Virus genome (UHGV): UHGV-0154790
Direction: 5' to 3' (one strand)
Source: a virus
DNA: 14,831 bases
The position numbers and the translations under genes are program-made. Position 1 is the first letter of the stretch. The number at the start of each line of letters is the position of its first letter. The notes below the pieces were generated by a model, which saw nothing but the letters and a program-made list of their open reading frames with translations, was not told the DNA's origin and made no database searches. Positions 1,163 to 10,741 of the stretch are shown here, one piece after another.

Positions 1163-1347
1163 ACGCCACAATTCAAACGATACCAGAGCTTCTTATCCAG
1201 ACACGAGGCAATCAGACCGAAGTGGCGAGGATGCTTTCCTGCGCAAGAGGAACAGTGCTCAAGTACAACCGAGACAGCAAAGGCGAGCGTCACGTAATAG
1301 TTAACGGCGTCCTGATGGTCAAACAGGGCAAAAGGGGAAGGCCATGA
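1159..1347 (+). CDS. ninH: NinH-like small DNA-binding protein
   Basis: 62 aa; GNQTEVARMLSCARGTVLKY resembles the lambda NinH helix-turn-helix; lies immediately upstream of Q as in lambda. Confidence 0.75.
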   Translation: MNATIQTIPELLIQTRGNQTEVARMLSCARGTVLKYNRDSKGERHVIVNGVLMVKQGKRGRP

Positions 1348-1967
1348 GACTCGAAAGCGTAGCTAAATTTCATTCGCCAAAAAGCCCGATGATGAGCGAC
1401 TCACCACGGGCTACGGCCTCTGACTCTCTTTCCGGTACTGATGTGATGGCTGCTATGGGGATGGCGCAATCACAAGCAGGATTCGGAATGGCTGCATTCT
1501 GCGGTAAGCATGAACTCAGCCAGAACGACAAACAAAAGGCTATCAACTATCTGATGCAATTTGCACACAAGGTATCTGGGAAATACCGTGGCGTGGCAAA
1601 GCTCGAAGGAAATACTAAGGCAAAGGTACTGCAAGTGCTCGCAACATTCGCTTATGCGGATTATTGCCGTAGTGCCGCGACGCCGGGCGCAAGATGCAGA
1701 GATTGCCACGGTACAGGCCGTGCGGTCGATATTGCCAAAACAGAACTGTGGGGGAGAGTTGTTGAGAAAGAATGCGGAAGATGCAAAGGTGTCGGCTATT
1801 CAAGAATGCCAGCAAGCGCCGCATATCGCGCTGTAACGATGCTAATCCCAAACCTTACTCAACCCACCTGGTCACGCACTGTTAAGCCGCTGTATGACGC
1901 TCTGGTGGTGCAATGCCACAAGGAAGAGTCAATCGCAGACAATATCTTGAATGCGGTCACACGTTAG
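1344..1967 (+). CDS. Q: late-gene antiterminator Q (lambda type)
   Basis: 207 aa with the zinc-finger cysteines CRDCHGTG...CGRCKG; sequence matches lambda Q as I recall it; followed by a pR'-like promoter and terminator. Confidence 0.9.
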   Translation: MRLESVAKFHSPKSPMMSDSPRATASDSLSGTDVMAAMGMAQSQAGFGMAAFCGKHELSQNDKQKAINYLMQFAHKVSGKYRGVAKLEGNTKAKVLQVLATFAYADYCRSAATPGARCRDCHGTGRAVDIAKTELWGRVVEKECGRCKGVGYSRMPASAAYRAVTMLIPNLTQPTWSRTVKPLYDALVVQCHKEESIADNILNAVTR

Positions 1968-2400: not shown

Positions 2401-2724
2401 ATGAAGATGCCAGAAAAACATGACCTGTTAGCCGCCATTCTCGCGGCAAAGGAACAAGGCATCGGGGCAATCCTTGCGTTTGCAATGGCGTACCTTCGCG
2501 GCAGATATAATGGCGGTGCGTTTACAAAAACAGTAATCGACGCAACGATGTGCGCCATTATCGCCTGGTTCATTCGTGACCTTCTCGACTTCGCCGGACT
2601 AAGTAGCAATCTCGCTTATATAACGAGCGTGTTCATCGGCTACATCGGTACTGACTCGATTGGTTCGCTTATCAAACGCTTCGCTGCTAAAAAAGCCGGA
2701 GTAGAAGATGGTGGAAATCAATAA
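2401..2724 (+). CDS. S: class I holin/antiholin S (dual-start, lambda S107/S105 type)
   Basis: 107 aa beginning MKMPEKHD (Met1-Lys2-Met3 dual-start motif); hydrophobic segments; sequence matches lambda S as recalled; overlaps the R start. Confidence 0.9.
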
Positions 2725-3184
2725 TCAACGTAAGGCGTTCCTTGATATGCTGGCGTGGTCAGAGGGAACTGATAACGGACGGCAGAAAACCAGAAATCAT
2801 GGTTATGACGTCATTGTTGGCGGAGAGCTATTCACTGATTACTCCGATCACCCTCGCAAACTTGTCACGCTAAACCCCAAACTCAAATCAACAGCAGCCG
2901 GACGTTACCAGCTTCTTTCCCGTTGGTGGGATGCCTATCGTAAGCAGCTTGGCTTGAAAGATTTCTCTCCGAAAAGCCAGGACGCTGTGGCACTGCAGCA
3001 GATTAAAGAGCGTGGCGCTTTACCGATGATTGATCGCGGTGATATCCGTCAGGCTATCGACCGTTGCAGCAATATCTGGGCTTCATTGCCGGGCGCTGGT
3101 TATGGTCAGTTCGAGCATAAGGCTGACAGCCTGATTGCAAAATTCAAAGAAGCGGGTGGAACGGTCAGAGAGATTGAGGTATGA
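2708..3184 (+). CDS. R: endolysin R (lambda-type lytic transglycosylase)
   Basis: 158 aa; [24 protein letters not shown] with the catalytic Glu in the WSEGT context; matches lambda R as recalled. Confidence 0.9.
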
Positions 3185-3618
3185 GCAGAATAACCGCGAT
3201 TATCTCCGCTCTGGTTATCTGCATCATCGTCTGCCTGTCATGGGCTGTTAATCATTACCGTGATAACGCCATCGCCTACAAAGAGCAGCGCGATAAGGCC
3301 ACATCCACAATCGCTGACATGCAGAAGCGTCAACGTGACGTAGCAGAACTCGATGCCAGATATACAAAGGAGCTTGCTGATGCTAACGCGACTATCGAAA
3401 GTCTCCGTGCTGATGTTTCTGCTGGCCGTAAGCGCCTGCAAGTCGCCGCCACCTGTGCAAAGTCAACGACCGGAGCCAGCGGCATGGGCGATGGAGAAAG
3501 CCCAAGACTTACAGCAGATGCTGAACTCAATTATTACCGTCTCCGAAGTGGAATCGACAGGATAACTGCGCAGGTTAACTACCTGCAGGAGTACATCAGG
3601 ACGCAATGCCTGAAATAA
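3181..3618 (+). CDS. Rz: i-spanin Rz
   Basis: 145 aa; N-terminal signal-anchor TM ([18 protein letters not shown]) then a charged, probably coiled-coil periplasmic domain; ATGA overlap with the R stop; contains Rz1 in another frame. Confidence 0.85.
3380..3565 (+). CDS. Rz1: o-spanin Rz1 (outer-membrane lipoprotein, embedded in Rz)
   Basis: Lies within Rz in a different frame; AAGGAG (3366-3371) 8 nt upstream of ATG 3380; signal peptide [20 protein letters not shown] with lipobox VSAC; Pro-rich mature part ([13 protein letters not shown]). Confidence 0.75.
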
Positions 3619-3651
3619 TTTTTTTTTGCAAATCACAAAGTCCATTTAATG

Positions 3652-3677
3652 AGCCTCGCGATGCGGGGCTTTTTTTA
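3652..3677 (+). terminator. intrinsic terminator after the lysis cassette
   Basis: GCCTCGC-GAT-GCGGGGC stem-loop followed by TTTTTTT. Confidence 0.6.
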
Positions 3678-3825
3678 CATCTGAATTTCACAGCGCATCT
3701 CACGCGCATATTACATCACCCGAGCCTTTCAGAAAGTTGAGCCTGAGAACTGTCGTATATGGTGGCGACCATCTCGGGGCGGCTTTTCTGTGAGACAGGC
3801 TCACTTTCTAAAAGGTAAAGACGCT

Positions 3826-4350
3826 ATGAATAATCATTCAGTTATTCCATCCTTCGACTTCCGAGAAATGGTGCAAGCCAAAAACGGAGAGGTCGTTACC
3901 ACATCCAGAAAAATTGCCAAGTACTTCGGCAAGCGACACGGTGATGTTCTCAGGAAAATCGAGCAGGTTAAGGCTGATTGCTCGCGTGAGTTTAGCCAAC
4001 GCAATTTTGCGTCGGCTGATTATATCGATGAGCAGGGCAAGGTTCGCCCGATGTACAGCCTGACGAAAGATGGCTGGATCATGGTTGTGATGGGGTTCAC
4101 CGGGAAAGCTGCTGCGGCAATCAAGGAGAGCTATATCGCAGCATTCAACTGGATGGCAGAGCAACTGAGCCGCCGCATGGCAATTGGCGAAGAAATGCAG
4201 CACCGCTACGCCATCAAAGAAACACGCTCAAAGCTGAAAGGTACGATCGGCAGTCGGTTAATGAACGAACGGAAGAAAGAGAAGCGTGTCCTGGCTGTCG
4301 AGCATGAATACATCTTGCAGGTGACACAGCCTGAACTGCTGATTAATTGA
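3826..4350 (+). CDS. Rha-family phage regulatory protein
   Basis: N-terminal TTSRKIAKYFGKRHGDVLRKIE...YSLTKDGW is typical of the Rha domain; ATG 3826 has an AAGG RBS, whereas the track's GTG at 3790 has none. Confidence 0.75.
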   Translation: MNNHSVIPSFDFREMVQAKNGEVVTTSRKIAKYFGKRHGDVLRKIEQVKADCSREFSQRNFASADYIDEQGKVRPMYSLTKDGWIMVVMGFTGKAAAAIKESYIAAFNWMAEQLSRRMAIGEEMQHRYAIKETRSKLKGTIGSRLMNERKKEKRVLAVEHEYILQVTQPELLIN

Positions 4351-4708
4351 AGATGTCATTACAAAGCCTATCTACTGGTGGGCTTGATAATGAAACCGGA
4401 ATTTATTCTGGGCAACCAGTTACGGCAGTACCGCGAAACAACCCAAGCCAGTAAGTGGGGAAATAACACTGGCAGCCACTGAAAGATGAACCTCCTGCCT
4501 TATGGCAAAAAAGATTCTTTGTGGTGGCGGACTGATGGAAAGACATCGGTTATTGCAGAGGCCATTCAATGAGTGGTCTCGACAATGGCTTATACCCTAC
4601 ACGGGATAACTTAACTGATATCCCTTTTAACGGATAAACGGAGCCAATAATGGCAGAGAATGTCGGCATTATGGCAGTGAAATTTGGATAAATCGGAGAT
4701 TAGTACAT

Positions 4709-5059
4709 ATGCCGCCACGAACCCCAAAAGCCTGCAGTGTTCGCGGCTGCCGCCATACCACAACTGACCCGTCAGGCTATTGCGAAAGCCACAAAAGTGA
4801 AGGCTGGAAGCAATACAAGCCGGGCCAGTCCAGACACCAGCGCGGTTATGGTTCGAAATGGGATGTTATCCGTGAACGTGTGCTCAAGCGTGACAAAGGA
4901 CTGTGTCAGTTATGTCTGCGTGGTGGTGTGGTACGTGAGGCGAAAACCGTTGACCACATCATTCCTAAAGCGCATGGCGGCACAGATGCCGACAGCAATC
5001 TGCAGAGCCTGTGCTGGCCGTGCCATAAGGCGAAGACGGCCCGTGAACGGCTAAAGTGA
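4709..5059 (+). CDS. HNH endonuclease (terminase-associated, HK97 gp74-like)
   Basis: 116 aa; N-terminal Cys cluster (CSVRGCRH...YCESH) and C-terminal HNH motif DHIIPKAHGG...SNLQSLCWPCHKAKT; lies directly upstream of the terminase genes. Confidence 0.9.
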   Translation: MPPRTPKACSVRGCRHTTTDPSGYCESHKSEGWKQYKPGQSRHQRGYGSKWDVIRERVLKRDKGLCQLCLRGGVVREAKTVDHIIPKAHGGTDADSNLQSLCWPCHKAKTARERLK

Positions 5060-5184
5060 TAATAATTCTCAACTGTCTGAGGGGAGGGGCGGGTCAAATC
5101 CCTGTGACCTGGCGTCTTCCGGACTGCCCGCCCCATCGTTTTTTTATACCCGCGAAAAATGAAATTTAACCAGGAGTGCCGCAT
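5060..5184 (+). other. candidate cos region with GC-rich inverted repeats
   Basis: Intergenic between HNH and terS; GGGGCGGG (5086-5093) pairs with CCCGCCCC (5127-5134), nested GGTCA/TGACC (5092-5096 / 5105-5109), then a T9 run (5139-5147). HK97-type phages place cos between the HNH gene and terS. Confidence 0.4.
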
Positions 5185-5679
5185 ATGGCTGGAACGGCGG
5201 GGCGTTCCGGGCGTCGCCCCAAGCCAACGGCGCGCAAGGCGCTGGCCGGAAACCCCGGCAAGCGAGCCCTGAACAAAGATGAACCTGTTTTTACGCCCAT
5301 CAAAGGTGTTGAGCCACCAGAGTGGTTCGCTGAAGAAGATCTCCCTCTCGCCACGATCATGTGGCAACTGACAACCAAAGAACTCTGCGGTCATGGCCTG
5401 TTGTGCGTGACTGACCTCGCGGTGCTTGAGCGGTGGTGCGTGGCCTATGAGTTCTGGCGACGTGCCGTGAAAAATATTGCCATACAGGGCAACACCATCA
5501 CCGGTGCAATGGGCGGCAGGGTCAAAAATCCGGAGCTGACCGCCAAAAAAGAACAGGAGTCCGAGATGAGCAGCACGGGGGCAATGCTCGGACTCGACCC
5601 CAGCAGCCGCCAGCGTCTGATTGGCCTGGCGGGGCAGAAGAAAGCCACTAACCCGTTTCTGAAAATCATCGAGTCATGA
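5185..5679 (+). CDS. terminase small subunit (P27-like family)
   Basis: AGGAG (5172-5176) 8 nt upstream of ATG 5185 (the track's GTG 5176 lies inside the RBS); basic N-terminus; stop overlaps the terL start (ATGA). Confidence 0.8.
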
Positions 5680-7409
5680 GCCGGAAATCTTACCCCAACG
5701 TAAATGCTGCCAATCAGTATGCCCGTGATGTTGTGCGCGGAAAGATTGTGGCCTGCCAGTTTGTGATTCAGGCCTGCCAGCGCCATCTTGATGACCTGAT
5801 GGCGGAAAAAAGTAAGTCGTTTCGTTACCGCTTCGACAAGGACCTGGCTGAACGGGCCGCCAAATTTATTCAGCTGTTGCCGCACACCAAGGGTGAGTGG
5901 GCATTCAAGAGGATGCCCATCACGCTGGAGCCGTGGCAGCTATTTGTGGTCTGCTGTGCGTTTGGCTGGGTCAATAAAGGGTCCCGGCTGCGCCGCTTCC
6001 GGGAGGTGTATACCGAAATCCCCCGTAAGAACGGCAAATCGGCAATCTCTGCCGGTGTTGCCCTGTATTGTTTTGCCTGTGATAACGAGTTTGGCGCGGA
6101 AGTGTATTCCGGTGCCACGACAGAGAAACAGGCGTGGGAAGTCTTTCGCCCGGCGCGACTGATGTGTAAACGCACACCCATGCTGACGGAAGCGTTCGGG
6201 ATTGAGGTTAACGCCTCAAACATGAATCGTCCGGAGGATGGCGCGCGGTTTGAACCGCTGATCGGTAACCCCGGTGATGGTTCATCACCCCACTGTGCGG
6301 TGGTGGATGAATATCACGAGCACGCCACCGATGCGCTTTACACCACGATGCTTACCGGGATGGGGGCGCGACGTCAGCCACTGATGTGGGCCATTACTAC
6401 TGCCGGGTACAACATTGAGGGGCCGTGCTACGACAAGCGGCGGGAAGTCATCGAGATGCTCAACGGCTCGGTGCCCAACGATGAACTGTTCGGGATCATC
6501 TATACCGTTGATGAAGGTGATGACTGGACCGACCCGCAGGTGCTGGAAAAAGCTAACCCGAATATTGGCGTGTCGGTTTATCGCGAATTTTTGTTAAGTC
6601 AGCAGCAGCGTGCGAAAAATAACGCCCGTCTGGCAAACGTCTTTAAAACAAAACACCTCAATATCTGGGTGTCGGCGCGTTCGGCGTATTTCAACCTGGT
6701 GAGCTGGCAGAGCTGCGAGGATAAATCACTGACCCTTGAGCAGTTCGAGGGGCAACCGTGCATTCTGGCCTTTGACCTGGCGCGTAAGCTGGATATGAAC
6801 AGCATGGCGCGACTTTATACCCGCGAGATTGACGGTAAAACGCATTACTACAGTGTGGCTCCGCGCTTCTGGGTACCGTATGACACGGTGTACAGCGTCG
6901 AGAAAAATGAAGATCGCCGGACAGCCGAACGCTTTCAGAAATGGGTGGAAATGGGCGTTCTGACCGTTACCGATGGTGCGGAGGTGGATTATCGCTACAT
7001 CCTCGAGGAGGCCAAAGCGGCGAACAAAATCAGCCCGGTCAGTGAGTCACCCATCGACCCCTTCGGGGCGACCGGGTTGTCACATGACCTTGCTGATGAA
7101 GACCTGAATCCCGTCACTATCATTCAGAACTACACCAACATGTCCGACCCGATGAAAGAGCTGGAAGCGGCAATTGAATCGGGGCGCTTTCATCATGATG
7201 GCAATCCCATCATGACCTGGTGTATCGGCAATGTGGTCGGCAAAACCATTCCGGGTAACGATGATGTGGTGAAACCCGTCAAAGAGCAGGCGGAAAACAA
7301 AATTGACGGTGCAGTTGCGCTGATTATGGCGGTTGGCAGAGCCATGCTGTACGAGAAAGAAGACACGCTGTCTGACCACATTGAGTCCTATGGGATCCGC
7401 TCGCTTTAA
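5676..7409 (+). CDS. terminase large subunit (HK97 type)
   Basis: 577 aa; P-loop-like PRKNGKS with acidic motifs further on (VVDEYHE); size and position between terS and portal. Confidence 0.9.
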
Positions 7410-7603: not shown

Positions 7604-8844
7604 TGTTCTTTTCGGGATTATTTCAACGAAAAAGTGACGCACCGGTGACCACGCCAGCAGAGCTGGCGGATGCCATCGGGTTGTCCTACGACACCTATAC
7701 CGGAAAGCAGATCAGCAGTCAGCGGGCCATGCGACTGACGGCGGTTTTTTCCTGCGTCAGAGTGCTGGCAGAGTCGGTCGGGATGTTGCCCTGCAATCTG
7801 TATCACCTGAACGGCAGCCTGAAGCAGAGAGCCACCGGCGAACGTCTGCATAAACTGATCTCCACGCATCCCAATGGCTATATGACGCCGCAGGAGTTCT
7901 GGGAGCTGGTGGTCACCTGTCTGTGCCTGCGGGGAAACTTTTACGCCTACAAAGTGAAAGCATTTGGCGAAGTGGCTGAACTGCTGCCCGTCGATCCCGG
8001 CTGTGTGGTACCGAAGCTTAACAGTAGCTGGGAGCCGATCTATCAGGTCACATTCCCGGATGGCTCCACGGATGTACTGAGCCAGGAGGATATCTGGCAT
8101 GTGCGCACGCTGACGCTGGACGGACTGGTGGGGCTGAATCCCATCGCCTATGCCCGCGAGGCAATATCGCTGGCAGCTGCGACCGAAGAGCACGGGGCCA
8201 GACTGTTCAGCAATGGCGCGGTGACGTCGGGTGTGTTGCGTACAGAGCAGACGCTGTCAGATCAGGCTTATGAGCGCCTGAAGAAAGATTTTGAGGAGCG
8301 TCACACCGGGCTTGGCAATGCTCACCGCCCGATGATCCTTGAGATGGGGCTGGACTGGAAGTCGATGGCGCTGAACGCCGAGGACAGCCAGTTCCTGGAA
8401 ACCCGCAAGTTTCAGCTTGAAGAAATCTGTCGTCTGTTCCGGGTGCCGTTGCACATGGTGCAGAACACCGATCGCGCCACCTTCAACAATATCGAAGAGC
8501 TGGGGCTGGGATTTATCAACTATTCACTGGTGCCGTATCTGACCCGCATCGAACAGCGGATCAACACCGGACTGGTACGAAAAAGTAAGCAGGGCGTTTA
8601 TTACGCCAAATTTAACGCCGGGGCGTTACTGCGCGGGGATATGAAGTCCCGTTTTGAAGCCTACGCCACCGGGATTAACTGGGGAATTTACTCTCCCAAT
8701 GACTGCCGCGACCTGGAAGATATGAATCCGCGTCCCGGTGGTGATGTCTATCTCACACCGATGAACATGACCACGAAACCCTCCGATGGCAGTAAAGCCG
8801 GTAAGCAGAAGGATAACGCCAATGCAGACGAAACAACGTCTTGA
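7603..8844 (+). CDS. portal protein (HK97 family)
   Basis: 413 aa; GTG start with GGAGG 6 nt upstream; size and position after terL; C-terminal acidic, low-complexity tail. Confidence 0.85.
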   Translation: MFFSGLFQRKSDAPVTTPAELADAIGLSYDTYTGKQISSQRAMRLTAVFSCVRVLAESVGMLPCNLYHLNGSLKQRATGERLHKLISTHPNGYMTPQEFWELVVTCLCLRGNFYAYKVKAFGEVAELLPVDPGCVVPKLNSSWEPIYQVTFPDGSTDVLSQEDIWHVRTLTLDGLVGLNPIAYAREAISLAAATEEHGARLFSNGAVTSGVLRTEQTLSDQAYERLKKDFEERHTGLGNAHRPMILEMGLDWKSMALNAEDSQFLETRKFQLEEICRLFRVPLHMVQNTDRATFNNIEELGLGFINYSLVPYLTRIEQRINTGLVRKSKQGVYYAKFNAGALLRGDMKSRFEAYATGINWGIYSPNDCRDLEDMNPRPGGDVYLTPMNMTTKPSDGSKAGKQKDNANADETTS

Positions 8845-9472
8845 TGTACCGCTGAGTCTGAAATCTGTCAGTGACTCCGGTGAGTTTGAAGGGTATGGCT
8901 CCGTCTTTGGTGTAAAGGACAGCCACGATGATGTGGTGATGTCCGGGGCATTTGCTGCTTCCCTGCGGGCGTGGAGTGACAGAAAAGCGTTACCTGCGCT
9001 GCTCTGGCAGCACCGCATGGATGAACCCATCGGTGTTTACACCGAAATGAAGGAAGACGATGTCGGGCTTTACGTCAGGGGACGGTTGCTTATTGATGAT
9101 GATCCCCTCGCAAAACGCGCACATGCACACATGAAGGCCGGTTCGTTAACCGGCCTTTCTATTGGGTACGTCCTGAAAGACTGGGAATACGACCGGAGCA
9201 AAGAAGCCTTTCTGCTGAAAGAAATCGACCTCTGGGAAGTCAGCCTGGTGACGTTCCCGTCTAACGACGAGGCGCGGATCAGCGACGTCAAGAACGCACT
9301 GGCCCGCGGGAAAATCCCCGAACAGAAAAAAATCGAAAGAGTCCTGCGTGATGTCGGACTCTCCCGTACCCAGGCCAAAGCATTCATGGCCGGGGGCTAT
9401 GGCGCACTGTCCCTGCGCGACGCTGAGGATGTGGGCTCTGCACTGAATGCACTGAAAAATCTGAACTTCTAA
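8822..9472 (+). CDS. prohead maturation protease (HK97 gp4-like)
   Basis: AAGGA 8 nt upstream of ATG 8822 (ATG 8786 has no RBS); position between portal and capsid; HK97-protease-like length. Confidence 0.8.
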   Translation: MQTKQRLDVPLSLKSVSDSGEFEGYGSVFGVKDSHDDVVMSGAFAASLRAWSDRKALPALLWQHRMDEPIGVYTEMKEDDVGLYVRGRLLIDDDPLAKRAHAHMKAGSLTGLSIGYVLKDWEYDRSKEAFLLKEIDLWEVSLVTFPSNDEARISDVKNALARGKIPEQKKIERVLRDVGLSRTQAKAFMAGGYGALSLRDAEDVGSALNALKNLNF

Positions 9473-10692: not shown

Positions 10693-10698
10693 TCACTC

Positions 10699-10725
10699 AG
10701 GGGCGCGGAACCGCGCCCCCTGTTC
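10699..10725 (+). terminator. GC-rich hairpin after the capsid gene (possible partial terminator or mRNA stabiliser)
   Basis: Perfect inverted repeat GGGGCGCGG-AA-CCGCGCCCC right after the capsid stop; no good U-tract (TGTTCTG). Confidence 0.45.
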
Positions 10726-10741
10726 TGACGGGTGAAGAATC

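Follow-up and report, generated by a model that had tools for sequence, protein, structure and literature searches.

Among lambdoid phages, RNase III sites are known from the early pL operon of lambda, where they occur at sib/int, in the N leader and at cIII. The sib element is a fully paired site whose cleavage destabilises the int mRNA. An internal loop confines RNase III cleavage to a single strand, and the 3' hairpins left by the cut protect the RNA upstream (PMC1540722, PMC3867540); the early mRNA of phage T7 is processed in this manner at five signals (PMC3867540). The signal R1.1, which carries an internal loop, is located between T7 genes 1.0 and 1.1 (PMC6121014). In P22, the pid gene was described as a moron inserted between orf25 and orf80, in a region for which flanking homology among P22-like phages has been documented (Cenens et al. 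2013, Figure 3B). Here, a stretch of 14,831 nt from the virus genome UHGV-0154790 (the window) was analysed. Based on gene content and domain searches, the window represents the late region of an HK97-like lambdoid prophage, and our interest lies in the region between its lysis gene Rz and its packaging genes, in particular the 358-bp gap (4351-4708) that separates a rha gene from the first packaging gene. This gap is a conserved, untranslated and structured stretch of the late (+ strand) transcript. It holds a new family of T7-like putative RNase III signals tied to accessory cassettes, represented here by the hairpins H1 and H6, together with a nearly invariant core lying between them.

A first-pass annotation, made from the sequence alone, had described the gap as AT-rich non-coding DNA and suggested that it might be a gene remnant, a small RNA or a regulatory region. 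No open reading frame (ORF) of at least 60 aa was found in 4351-4708 on either strand, the longest being 47-50 aa on the minus strand, while the AT-richness turned out to be only mild (44.1% GC vs 53.4% for the whole window). The lack of a long ORF in 358 bp is not by itself beyond chance; the conservation and covariation of the segment are. BLAST searches with the gap returned 207 phage records at 87-99% identity and matched 2,552 of 5,426 complete E. coli genomes, single genomes carrying as many as 5 copies and E. coli as a whole roughly 3,400; this distribution does away with the idea of a local oddity. The part common to relatives extends from 4356 to 4659, is 93-99% identical in these phage records and genomes, and will be referred to as the block. 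It is present in phages with HK97-type packaging genes (HNH/cos), including HK97, HK022, mEp234/235 and HK106, as well as in P22-like podoviruses with DUF2560/pac packaging (HK620, Sf6, P22, L, BTP1, SEN22 and CUS-3), so that two different packaging modules are found downstream of it; partial versions occur in ES18, POCJ13, Stx2 phage 1717, mEp460 and Ayreon. In a scan of 185,579 species genomes, exact matches to a 21-mer of the core were confined to E. coli, Salmonella arizonae and a few contigs of metagenome-assembled genomes (MAGs) binned to other taxa, and the host range of the family is therefore narrow. Few non-coding blocks are as widespread as this one among the lambdoid phages of E. 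coli and Salmonella. Curated records leave it without annotation, except where the next gene clips it; in HK97, HK022 and the mEp phages, nothing is annotated there. Short-word BLAST of the gap against T7, lambda, DLP12 and phi80 yielded chance-level words only, and a search for internal repeats returned nothing meaningful; the motif TAYGGCAG seemed locally enriched but proved to be common across the whole window.

The block contains two hairpins on the late strand. H1 has the sequence UCAUUA-CA-AAGCCUAUC-UACU-GGUGGGCUU-GA-UAAUGA, with a loop that is UACU in the window and UACG in most relatives, and its paralogue H6 reads GUUAUUG-CA-GAGGCCAUUC-AAU-GAGUGGUCUC-GA-CAAUGGC. Both display an identical 2x2 CA/GA internal loop below upper stems of 9-10 bp. 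Folding is markedly asymmetric between strands: H1 reaches -18.8 kcal/mol (z -7.4) on the + strand vs -11.5 on the - strand, H6 reaches -22.6 kcal/mol (z -5.7) vs -10.2, and the RNA of the whole gap has a z of -4.95 on the + strand and -2.4 on the - strand. Across 40 distinct sequences, the 17 pairs of H6 are 99.9% paired, with GC<->AU double changes at 3 pairs and wobble-preserving single changes at 5, and pairing in H1 is kept in all one-sided changes. When the two were pooled, compensatory changes were found in 8 of the 14 pairs, and 99.1% and 97.2% of cells were paired vs 35-49% in slid-partner controls; G.U pairs account for 13.5% of cells, and reading the same alignment as the minus strand lowers pairing to 84%. 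A diverged copy located right after phi80 rha (AUUA-CA-GCAGGCAUUC-ACU-GAGUGCCUGU-GA-UAAU) contributes three further compensatory pairs. These hairpins are thus very probably functional RNA structures of the + strand. Because they evolve by compensatory changes, the first-pass proviso that the gap might be conserved only as a spacer does not hold.

The same hairpins resemble the RNase III signals of T7. A covariance model built from the lambdoid hairpins only was run unfiltered over the whole T7 genome, and its best upper-stem matches (5861-5884, 3115-3134 and 36830-36853) were intergenic, immediately preceding genes 1.1, 1 and 18.5. We take these to be the RNase III sites R1.1, R1 and R18.5, and folds at these coordinates show the expected hairpins. 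With ten short sites in the ~80 kb searched, it is very unlikely that 3 of the 6 reported matches fell on such sites by chance (estimate ~4e-6). The upper stems of R1.1 (AAGGUCAUUC GCAA GAGUGGCCUU) and H6 (GAGGCCAUUC AAU GAGUGGUCUC) are nearly identical, R1 (AGGUCAUC UGCG GGUGGCCU) is close to the H1 consensus (AAGCCCAUC UACG GGUGGGCUU), and the upper stem of R18.5 is AAGGCCACUA..UAGUGGUCUU. Both lambdoid hairpins have the T7-like upper stem, with an AAG/CUU base and A-U and U.G pairs near the loop. Conversely, a model built from seven T7 sites and searched in the window placed H1 and H6 second and third. Counting lower stem, internal loop and upper stem, H6 has 7-8 + 2 + 10 positions and H1 has 6 + 2 + 9. 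Like the T7 signals, the two hairpins are intercistronic and lie on the transcribed (+) strand of a polycistronic operon, between the accessory gene and the packaging genes. The lambdoid model found nothing in lambda 44000-48502 or in the K-12 prophage DLP12. Literature searches returned nothing relevant on RNase III sites in lambdoid late operons and yielded no account of the core or the hairpins, or of RNase III acting at this locus; key older papers, including older genome papers, fell outside these searches, and an earlier description is possible.

The distribution of the hairpins follows that of exchangeable genes. To the left of rha, relatives share a 5' leader with a ribosome-binding site (RBS) that is kept whichever gene comes next: BLAST matches spanning 3700 stop at 3830-3836, just past the RBS and ATG, in more than 21 loci with another gene in this position (slot 1), such as KilA-N in locus L003 (E. 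coli HCP8S3). To the right, homology among relatives picks up again at 4356. The cargo enclosed between 3830 and 4356 in relatives is Rha, KilA-N with hkbL, a GIY-YIG nuclease, Gp49 with Rha, an HNH protein with a regulator, or no gene at all, and in the window it is a complete rha gene. Since different genes sit between conserved flanks, the region is a two-part accessory slot with a fixed frame, occupied by variable cargo at a fixed site as expected for a moron. The first-pass annotation had placed an accessory (moron) slot in the interval that separates lysis cassette and packaging genes and had advised a BLAST survey of what fills it elsewhere; the alternative cargoes listed above bear out this view. 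The terminator of the slot sits upstream of the cargo, not downstream, the downstream element being the H1 hairpin. Similar hairpins occur one to three per locus, all within the region. In 66 of 77 cases, H1-type hairpins are found within 45 nt (mostly 2-15 nt) after an ORF of at least 45 aa, with ORF sizes of 50-255 aa. A second slot at 4547/4549, seen in L008 (1751-2166) and 17 other loci, accommodates inserts of 241-656 nt, including Sf6 gene 66. These encode ORFs of 61-126 aa, each ending 2 nt before an H6b-type hairpin of its own; 18 of the 19 H6b-type hairpins are placed in this way. None of the 90 H6a-type hairpins follows an ORF; all follow the non-coding core. The hairpins travel with exchangeable accessory genes. 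Breakpoints in the alignment of relatives recur at 4356, 4405/4407, 4422, 4547/4549, 4601/4608, 4638 and 4659, of which 4422 corresponds to the stop of the rha allele in P22, BTP1 and POCJ13, and 4601/4608 to the P22 pid moron and the phage L junction; the pid site of P22 is inside the same block, after 4608. As side observations, a 58-59-nt insertion between H1 and the core was noted in HK620, Sf6 and 16 IMG/VR loci (e.g., L001 1550-1610 and L008 1551-1607), and an anti-CRISPR protein is annotated within the block of phage Huey.

Sequence constraint is strongest in the core. Nucleotide diversity (pi) in the collected loci is 0.015 in the core (B2, 4440-4547), 0.018 in 4601-4638 (C2) and 0.017 in 4639-4659 (D), while the other parts of the block range from 0.07 to 0.12, with 0.12 for 4407-4439. 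In the endolysin and Rz genes of the same loci, pi amounts to 0.11-0.13 at third codon positions and 0.009-0.045 at first and second positions, so that diversity in the core is about sevenfold below that of neighbouring third codon positions. Because loci were collected by exact match to an 18- or 21-mer of the core, 18-21 of the 108 core columns are fixed; the near-invariant core was also found in the independently retrieved HK97, HK620, L, P22, BTP1 and POCJ13. This strongly constrained segment occurs in 47% of complete E. coli genomes, yet neither Rfam nor genome annotations include it. It contains an A-rich stretch, and an ACCUCCU motif is exposed. The first-pass annotation had proposed a covariance search of the gap; scanning the window with the covariance models of Rfam 15 gave no gathering-level match (best sub-threshold E 2.8-9.8), and the segment belongs to no family recognised there. 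Several candidate structures in and around the core were rejected: the minimum free energy helices 4396-4411, 4419-4439, 4447-4473 and 4496-4507 are contradicted by sequence variation, and a terminator-like hairpin on the minus strand (4512-4491), also annotated in phage L, is broken by a T>A change at 4496 in about a third of the sequences. An inverted repeat of lambda (45031-45060), located between orf-64 and S, contains the same 11-mer AACCTCCTGCC as the core (E 0.3), probably by chance.

We propose that H1 and H6 are RNase III signals providing a T7-type punctuation of the late transcript, and we put the probability of this reading at roughly 0.55. In the late transcript, which is antiterminated by Q, host RNase III would cleave the 3' side of both hairpins at or beside the internal loop, around 4386-4388 in H1 and 4581-4583 in H6. 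The upstream message, composed of the lysis genes and the accessory gene (here rha), would keep a protective 3' hairpin, the downstream packaging-gene message would gain a new 5' end, and the accessory cassette would thereby be uncoupled in stability and translation from its neighbours. The core would lie on the ~195-nt fragment between the two cuts.

A number of observations weigh against this proposal. The internal loop of H1 and H6 is symmetric (2x2 CA/GA) and not asymmetric 4/5 as in R1.1, and H1, with only ~17 bp-equivalents, is short for a two-turn substrate. For the T7 site coordinates, corroboration comes only from the folds, the gene positions and, for R1.1, a published description (PMC6121014). 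Taken one by one, the cross-family scores are weak (E 0.45-3.8 in T7; in the window, 0.1 for H1 and 0.25 for H6), although we find them persuasive together, and the top match of the T7-derived model in the window is an unrelated palindrome at 9130-9163. The number of independent covariation events is modest, because the changes stem from a limited set of alleles and from paralogues. With regard to the core, the retrieval of loci by exact mers slightly deflates its measured diversity, and the proposed mechanism leaves the conservation of these 108 nt unexplained.

Other explanations can be confronted with the same data. The block might serve only as a recombination linker, a shared patch of homology for swapping lysis and accessory arms with head modules, in which similarity would result from frequent exchange with no RNA function. 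Its position exactly at a module boundary, where it joins two unrelated packaging modules, and its recurrent breakpoints are what such a linker would predict; the neighbouring genes are also 91-98% identical in many relatives, and the confinement of the core 21-mer to E. coli and Salmonella genomes, apart from the MAG contigs, is suggestive of a young or narrow family. Yet exchange alone does not account for compensatory and wobble-preserving changes in both hairpins, for their strand asymmetry or for a diversity far below that of silent sites, all of which argue for selection on an RNA, and a linker has no need for paralogous hairpins placed after stop codons. We consider the linker rather unlikely as the only role of the block, but the linker and RNA roles are not mutually exclusive. 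That the gap is a decayed coding sequence, as the first-pass mention of a gene remnant implied, is extremely improbable. This suggestion was right for 4640-4659 only, where the RBS, ATG and first three codons of DUF2560/hkbM are found, and the annotations of P22 and phage L do place small or extended ORFs (orf25 and orf118) in the block. However, none of the small ORFs in 4351-4708 is maintained: in roughly half of the distinct homologues or more, the start is lost, a stop is gained or the length differs, and those overlapping the core are intact in fewer than about half of these homologues. A single T>A change at 4503 removes the ATG of ORF 4502-4609 and creates a stop in ORF 4486-4572, and P22 and ES18 have 1-2-nt indels in the core. 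The small peptides 4390-4482, 4486-4572 and 4502-4609 on the + strand, as well as the minus-strand ORFs 4403-4546 and 4420-4569, were rejected in view of lost starts, gained stops, varying lengths and the lack of any PHROG match. As to orf118 of phage L/ST64T, which starts at the equivalent of 4502, its match to the DUF2560 PHROG begins only at residue 27, and its N-terminus is therefore an annotation extension. A decaying sequence, moreover, would not be less diverse than nearby silent sites. No reading frame is preserved across 4356-4639, and this part of the block is non-coding.

The hairpins might also be transcription terminators or insulators closing accessory cassettes, as assumed by the annotators of phage Ayreon, in which an H6-type hairpin is labelled 'terminator'. 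Hairpins directly after stop codons would be well placed for this purpose, and the smaller hairpin of segment C2 is followed by UUUU. In contrast, H1 and H6 are followed by GAUAAUGAAACC and GGCUUAUACCC, neither of which provides the U run of an intrinsic terminator, they were not called by the terminator scan, and their build of lower stem, internal loop and upper stem, together with their T7 likeness, fits processing signals better, which makes termination a highly unlikely function for them. A further reading gives the central role to the core: the segment between the hairpins (about 4388-4582, with H6 at its 3' end) would be a non-coding RNA of ~195 nt, excised and acting in trans or as a decoy. 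Constraint within the block peaks in the core, which exposes an ACCUCCU motif and an A-rich stretch, and H6a-type hairpins always follow it, as if it were the 'gene' of the cassette. Against this, the promoter scan detected no sigma-70-like site in 3550-5250, Rfam holds no matching family, and the transcriptome annotation of D23580/BTP1 lists eight new prophage small RNAs (sRNAs), none of them between rha and pid. Sf6-like phages carry an inserted protein gene that separates core and hairpin, which would make the core a 5' leader there. A non-coding RNA of this kind seems unlikely on balance. We are equally doubtful that T7-like hairpins excise the core as a hairpin-capped RNA of ~195 nt, with either the late transcript or read-through from accessory genes expressed in the prophage as its source, and only tentatively consider that the core is released as a functional RNA, for instance one titrating a host factor or pairing via its ACCUCCU or A-rich segments. 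The first-pass alternative of a small RNA or regulatory region thus pointed in the right direction as far as RNA and regulation are concerned, while a stand-alone sRNA gene finds no support in promoter, Rfam or BTP1 data.

The right end of the gap combines two further elements. The C2 hairpin has a 6-bp stem, a 10-nt loop and the terminal UUUU (fold z -2.8). Its pairs are invariant across sequences and so leave no room for a covariation test. It co-occurs with an H6-type hairpin even in phages devoid of segment B, namely Stx2 phage 1717, Ayreon and mEp460. C2 may be a weak terminator or an insulator, in which case it would stop transcripts of the cassette that arise in the lysogen from running into the packaging genes. 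Next to it, 4640-4659 aligns with the RBS, ATG and first three codons of DUF2560 (hkbM / P22 orf80) of P22-like phages, as in HK620 hkbM, E. coli DUF2560 and HK97, and homology to the P22-like phages stops at 4659. HK97 retains a longer N-terminal remnant of DUF2560 at the same place. In the window, the fusion to DNA of the HNH module gives a mini-ORF of 13 codons (4650-4691), which stops 17 nt short of the HNH ATG and may hand ribosomes over to this start. The last 60 bp of the gap form the region where ribosomes load for the first packaging gene, and they incorporate what is left of a DUF2560 start. The junction between block and HNH gene is common, at 97-99% identity, to E. coli prophages with the same HNH/TerS module. 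The HNH endonuclease gene is situated beside the terminase, in a position like that of HK97 gp74; its product also weakly matches the NCBIfam model of IscB in the HNH region, with 46.9 bits and thus far under the cut-off, and the cos site is expected in 5060-5175.

At the other end of the region, the terminator that the first-pass annotation had located after Rz is indeed there: this G+C-rich hairpin followed by a U run was called by the terminator scan, has a fold of -14.1 kcal/mol, and is homologous to a site annotated as a terminator in the phi80 record. The assignment of the next gene to the Rha family was also corroborated, by Pfam PF09669 (E 2.6e-28; 98.9 bits vs a cut-off of 29.9), TIGR02681 (113.8 bits vs a cut-off of 45.95) and phrog_518 (E 3.8e-78). 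The protein is identical to phi80 Rha, the founding member, at 126 of 173 residues (73%), end to end, and shares 36% identity with P22 ORF201. Being a full-length orthologue of phi80 Rha, it is not an antirepressor fragment, a possibility that had been raised together with the assignment. The phi80 gene occupies the same place after Rz and the terminator, and its record carries the note 'DNA synthesis inhibition in IHF- hosts'. The start codon of rha is ambiguous, since the start annotated in phi80 is matched by an in-frame GTG at 3790; the window protein is 10 residues shorter than its phi80 counterpart only if ATG 3826 is used instead. Neither the rha gene nor the slot is out of the ordinary; both are of known kinds.

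The features of the region and their context are compiled in the table below. Downstream of the large terminase gene, the window encodes a portal, a prohead protease and an HK97-fold capsid protein. No tRNA or tmRNA gene was found by ARAGORN, including in the interval between Q and holin (1968-2400), where the close relatives L003 and L012 have tRNA-Thr or tRNA-Asn/Leu. An ORF of 44 aa (3606-3740), which overlaps the Rz stop and crosses the terminator, has no family match and may be spurious; in relatives, an ORF of 50 aa is annotated in its place (Sf6 gene 65, WP_001139681.1). Two other hairpins were noted in the head genes. The palindrome at 9130-9163 is a perfect hairpin (AAGGCCGGUU..AACCGGCCUU) inside the prohead-protease ORF (8786-9472) and gave the top match of the T7 model on both strands. 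A GC-rich hairpin with a U-rich tail (10695-10726), 3 nt past the stop of the major capsid gene (10692), resembles a terminator or attenuator after the most abundant structural gene.

Table. Features of the accessory slot, the conserved block and the surrounding late genes (window coordinates).
Feature	Position	Strand	Description
Q antiterminator	1344-1967		
Holin	2401-2724		
Endolysin	2708-3184		
Rz	3181-3618		Directly left of the region under study
Intrinsic terminator after Rz	3651-3677	+	9-bp stem 3651-3671 (6 G-C pairs), U run to 3677; left edge of slot 1
Shared 5' leader of slot 1	3678-3825	+	Includes the RBS
rha	3826-4350	+	Rha-family regulator, 174 aa; slot 1 cargo
Hairpin H1 (putative RNase III signal)	4356-4393	+	6-bp lower stem, CA/GA internal loop, 9-bp upper stem, UACU loop; 6 nt after the rha stop
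Variable linker	4394-4439	+	Recurrent junctions; 58-59-nt insertion at 4405/4407; alternative left boundary 4422
Core B2	4440-4547	+	Nearly invariant, non-coding, 108 nt
Hairpin H6 (putative RNase III signal)	4548-4590	+	Paralogue of H1; 7-8-bp lower stem, CA/GA internal loop, 10-bp upper stem GAGGCCAUUC/GAGUGGUCUC, AAU loop
Conserved segment C2	4591-4639	+	Hairpin GGGAUA 4603-4608 / UAUCCC 4619-4624, then UUUU 4625-4628
DUF2560/hkbM translation start	4640-4691	+	GGAG 4640-4643, ATG 4650, three codons; fused at 4659/4660 to HNH-module DNA
HNH RBS and spacer	4692-4708	+	GGAG 4695-4698, read from the sequence
HNH endonuclease	4709-5059	+	Pfam PF01844 (E 2.2e-16); first gene of the HK97-type packaging module; context, outside the element
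Small terminase (TerS)	5176-5679		P27 family
Large terminase (TerL)	5676-7409		

If the hairpins are RNase III signals, lambdoid late operons would be punctuated like the early mRNA of T7, and accessory genes, including anti-defence cargo such as the anti-CRISPR of phage Huey, would carry their own 3' processing or stability element. This would help explain how foreign genes can be inserted into a tightly regulated operon without disturbing the expression of packaging genes, and would give annotators a recognisable marker of cassette boundaries. Were the core to be released as an RNA, it would represent a very common unannotated phage non-coding RNA, present in about half of sequenced E. coli.

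Compared with known systems, the locus has the same genome position and the same variability of cargo as the lambdoid morons (Juhala et al. 2000), including the P22 pid locus (Cenens et al. 2013). The moron concept covers the cargo, with its promoter, gene and terminator, whereas a conserved non-coding frame with hairpins is the feature of the block described here. Prophage sRNAs such as AsxR/AgvB, the Pas sRNAs, STnc100 and IsrK are also non-coding RNAs at conserved lambdoid positions, but they lie between Q/pR' and the lysis genes or elsewhere, and none matches the block, which was accordingly rejected as a copy of any of them. The sib/int site of lambda is comparable to H1 and H6 in being a hairpin downstream of a gene in an antiterminated lambdoid transcript, with the fate of the upstream message at stake; the lambda sites, however, belong to the early pL operon and have no sequence similarity to the hairpins of the block. 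The T7 signals R0.3, R0.5, R1, R1.1, R1.3, R4.7 and R18.5 come from a different setting, since the phage studied here is temperate and lambdoid and relies on E. coli RNA polymerase with Q antitermination for its transcription, and H1 and H6, whose cleavage is putative, have shorter lower stems, a small and symmetric internal loop, and a link to exchangeable accessory genes. Both groups are nonetheless intercistronic hairpins in a long polycistronic phage transcript, each composed of a lower stem, an internal loop, an upper stem of 9-10 bp and a small loop, with upper stems that are nearly shared.

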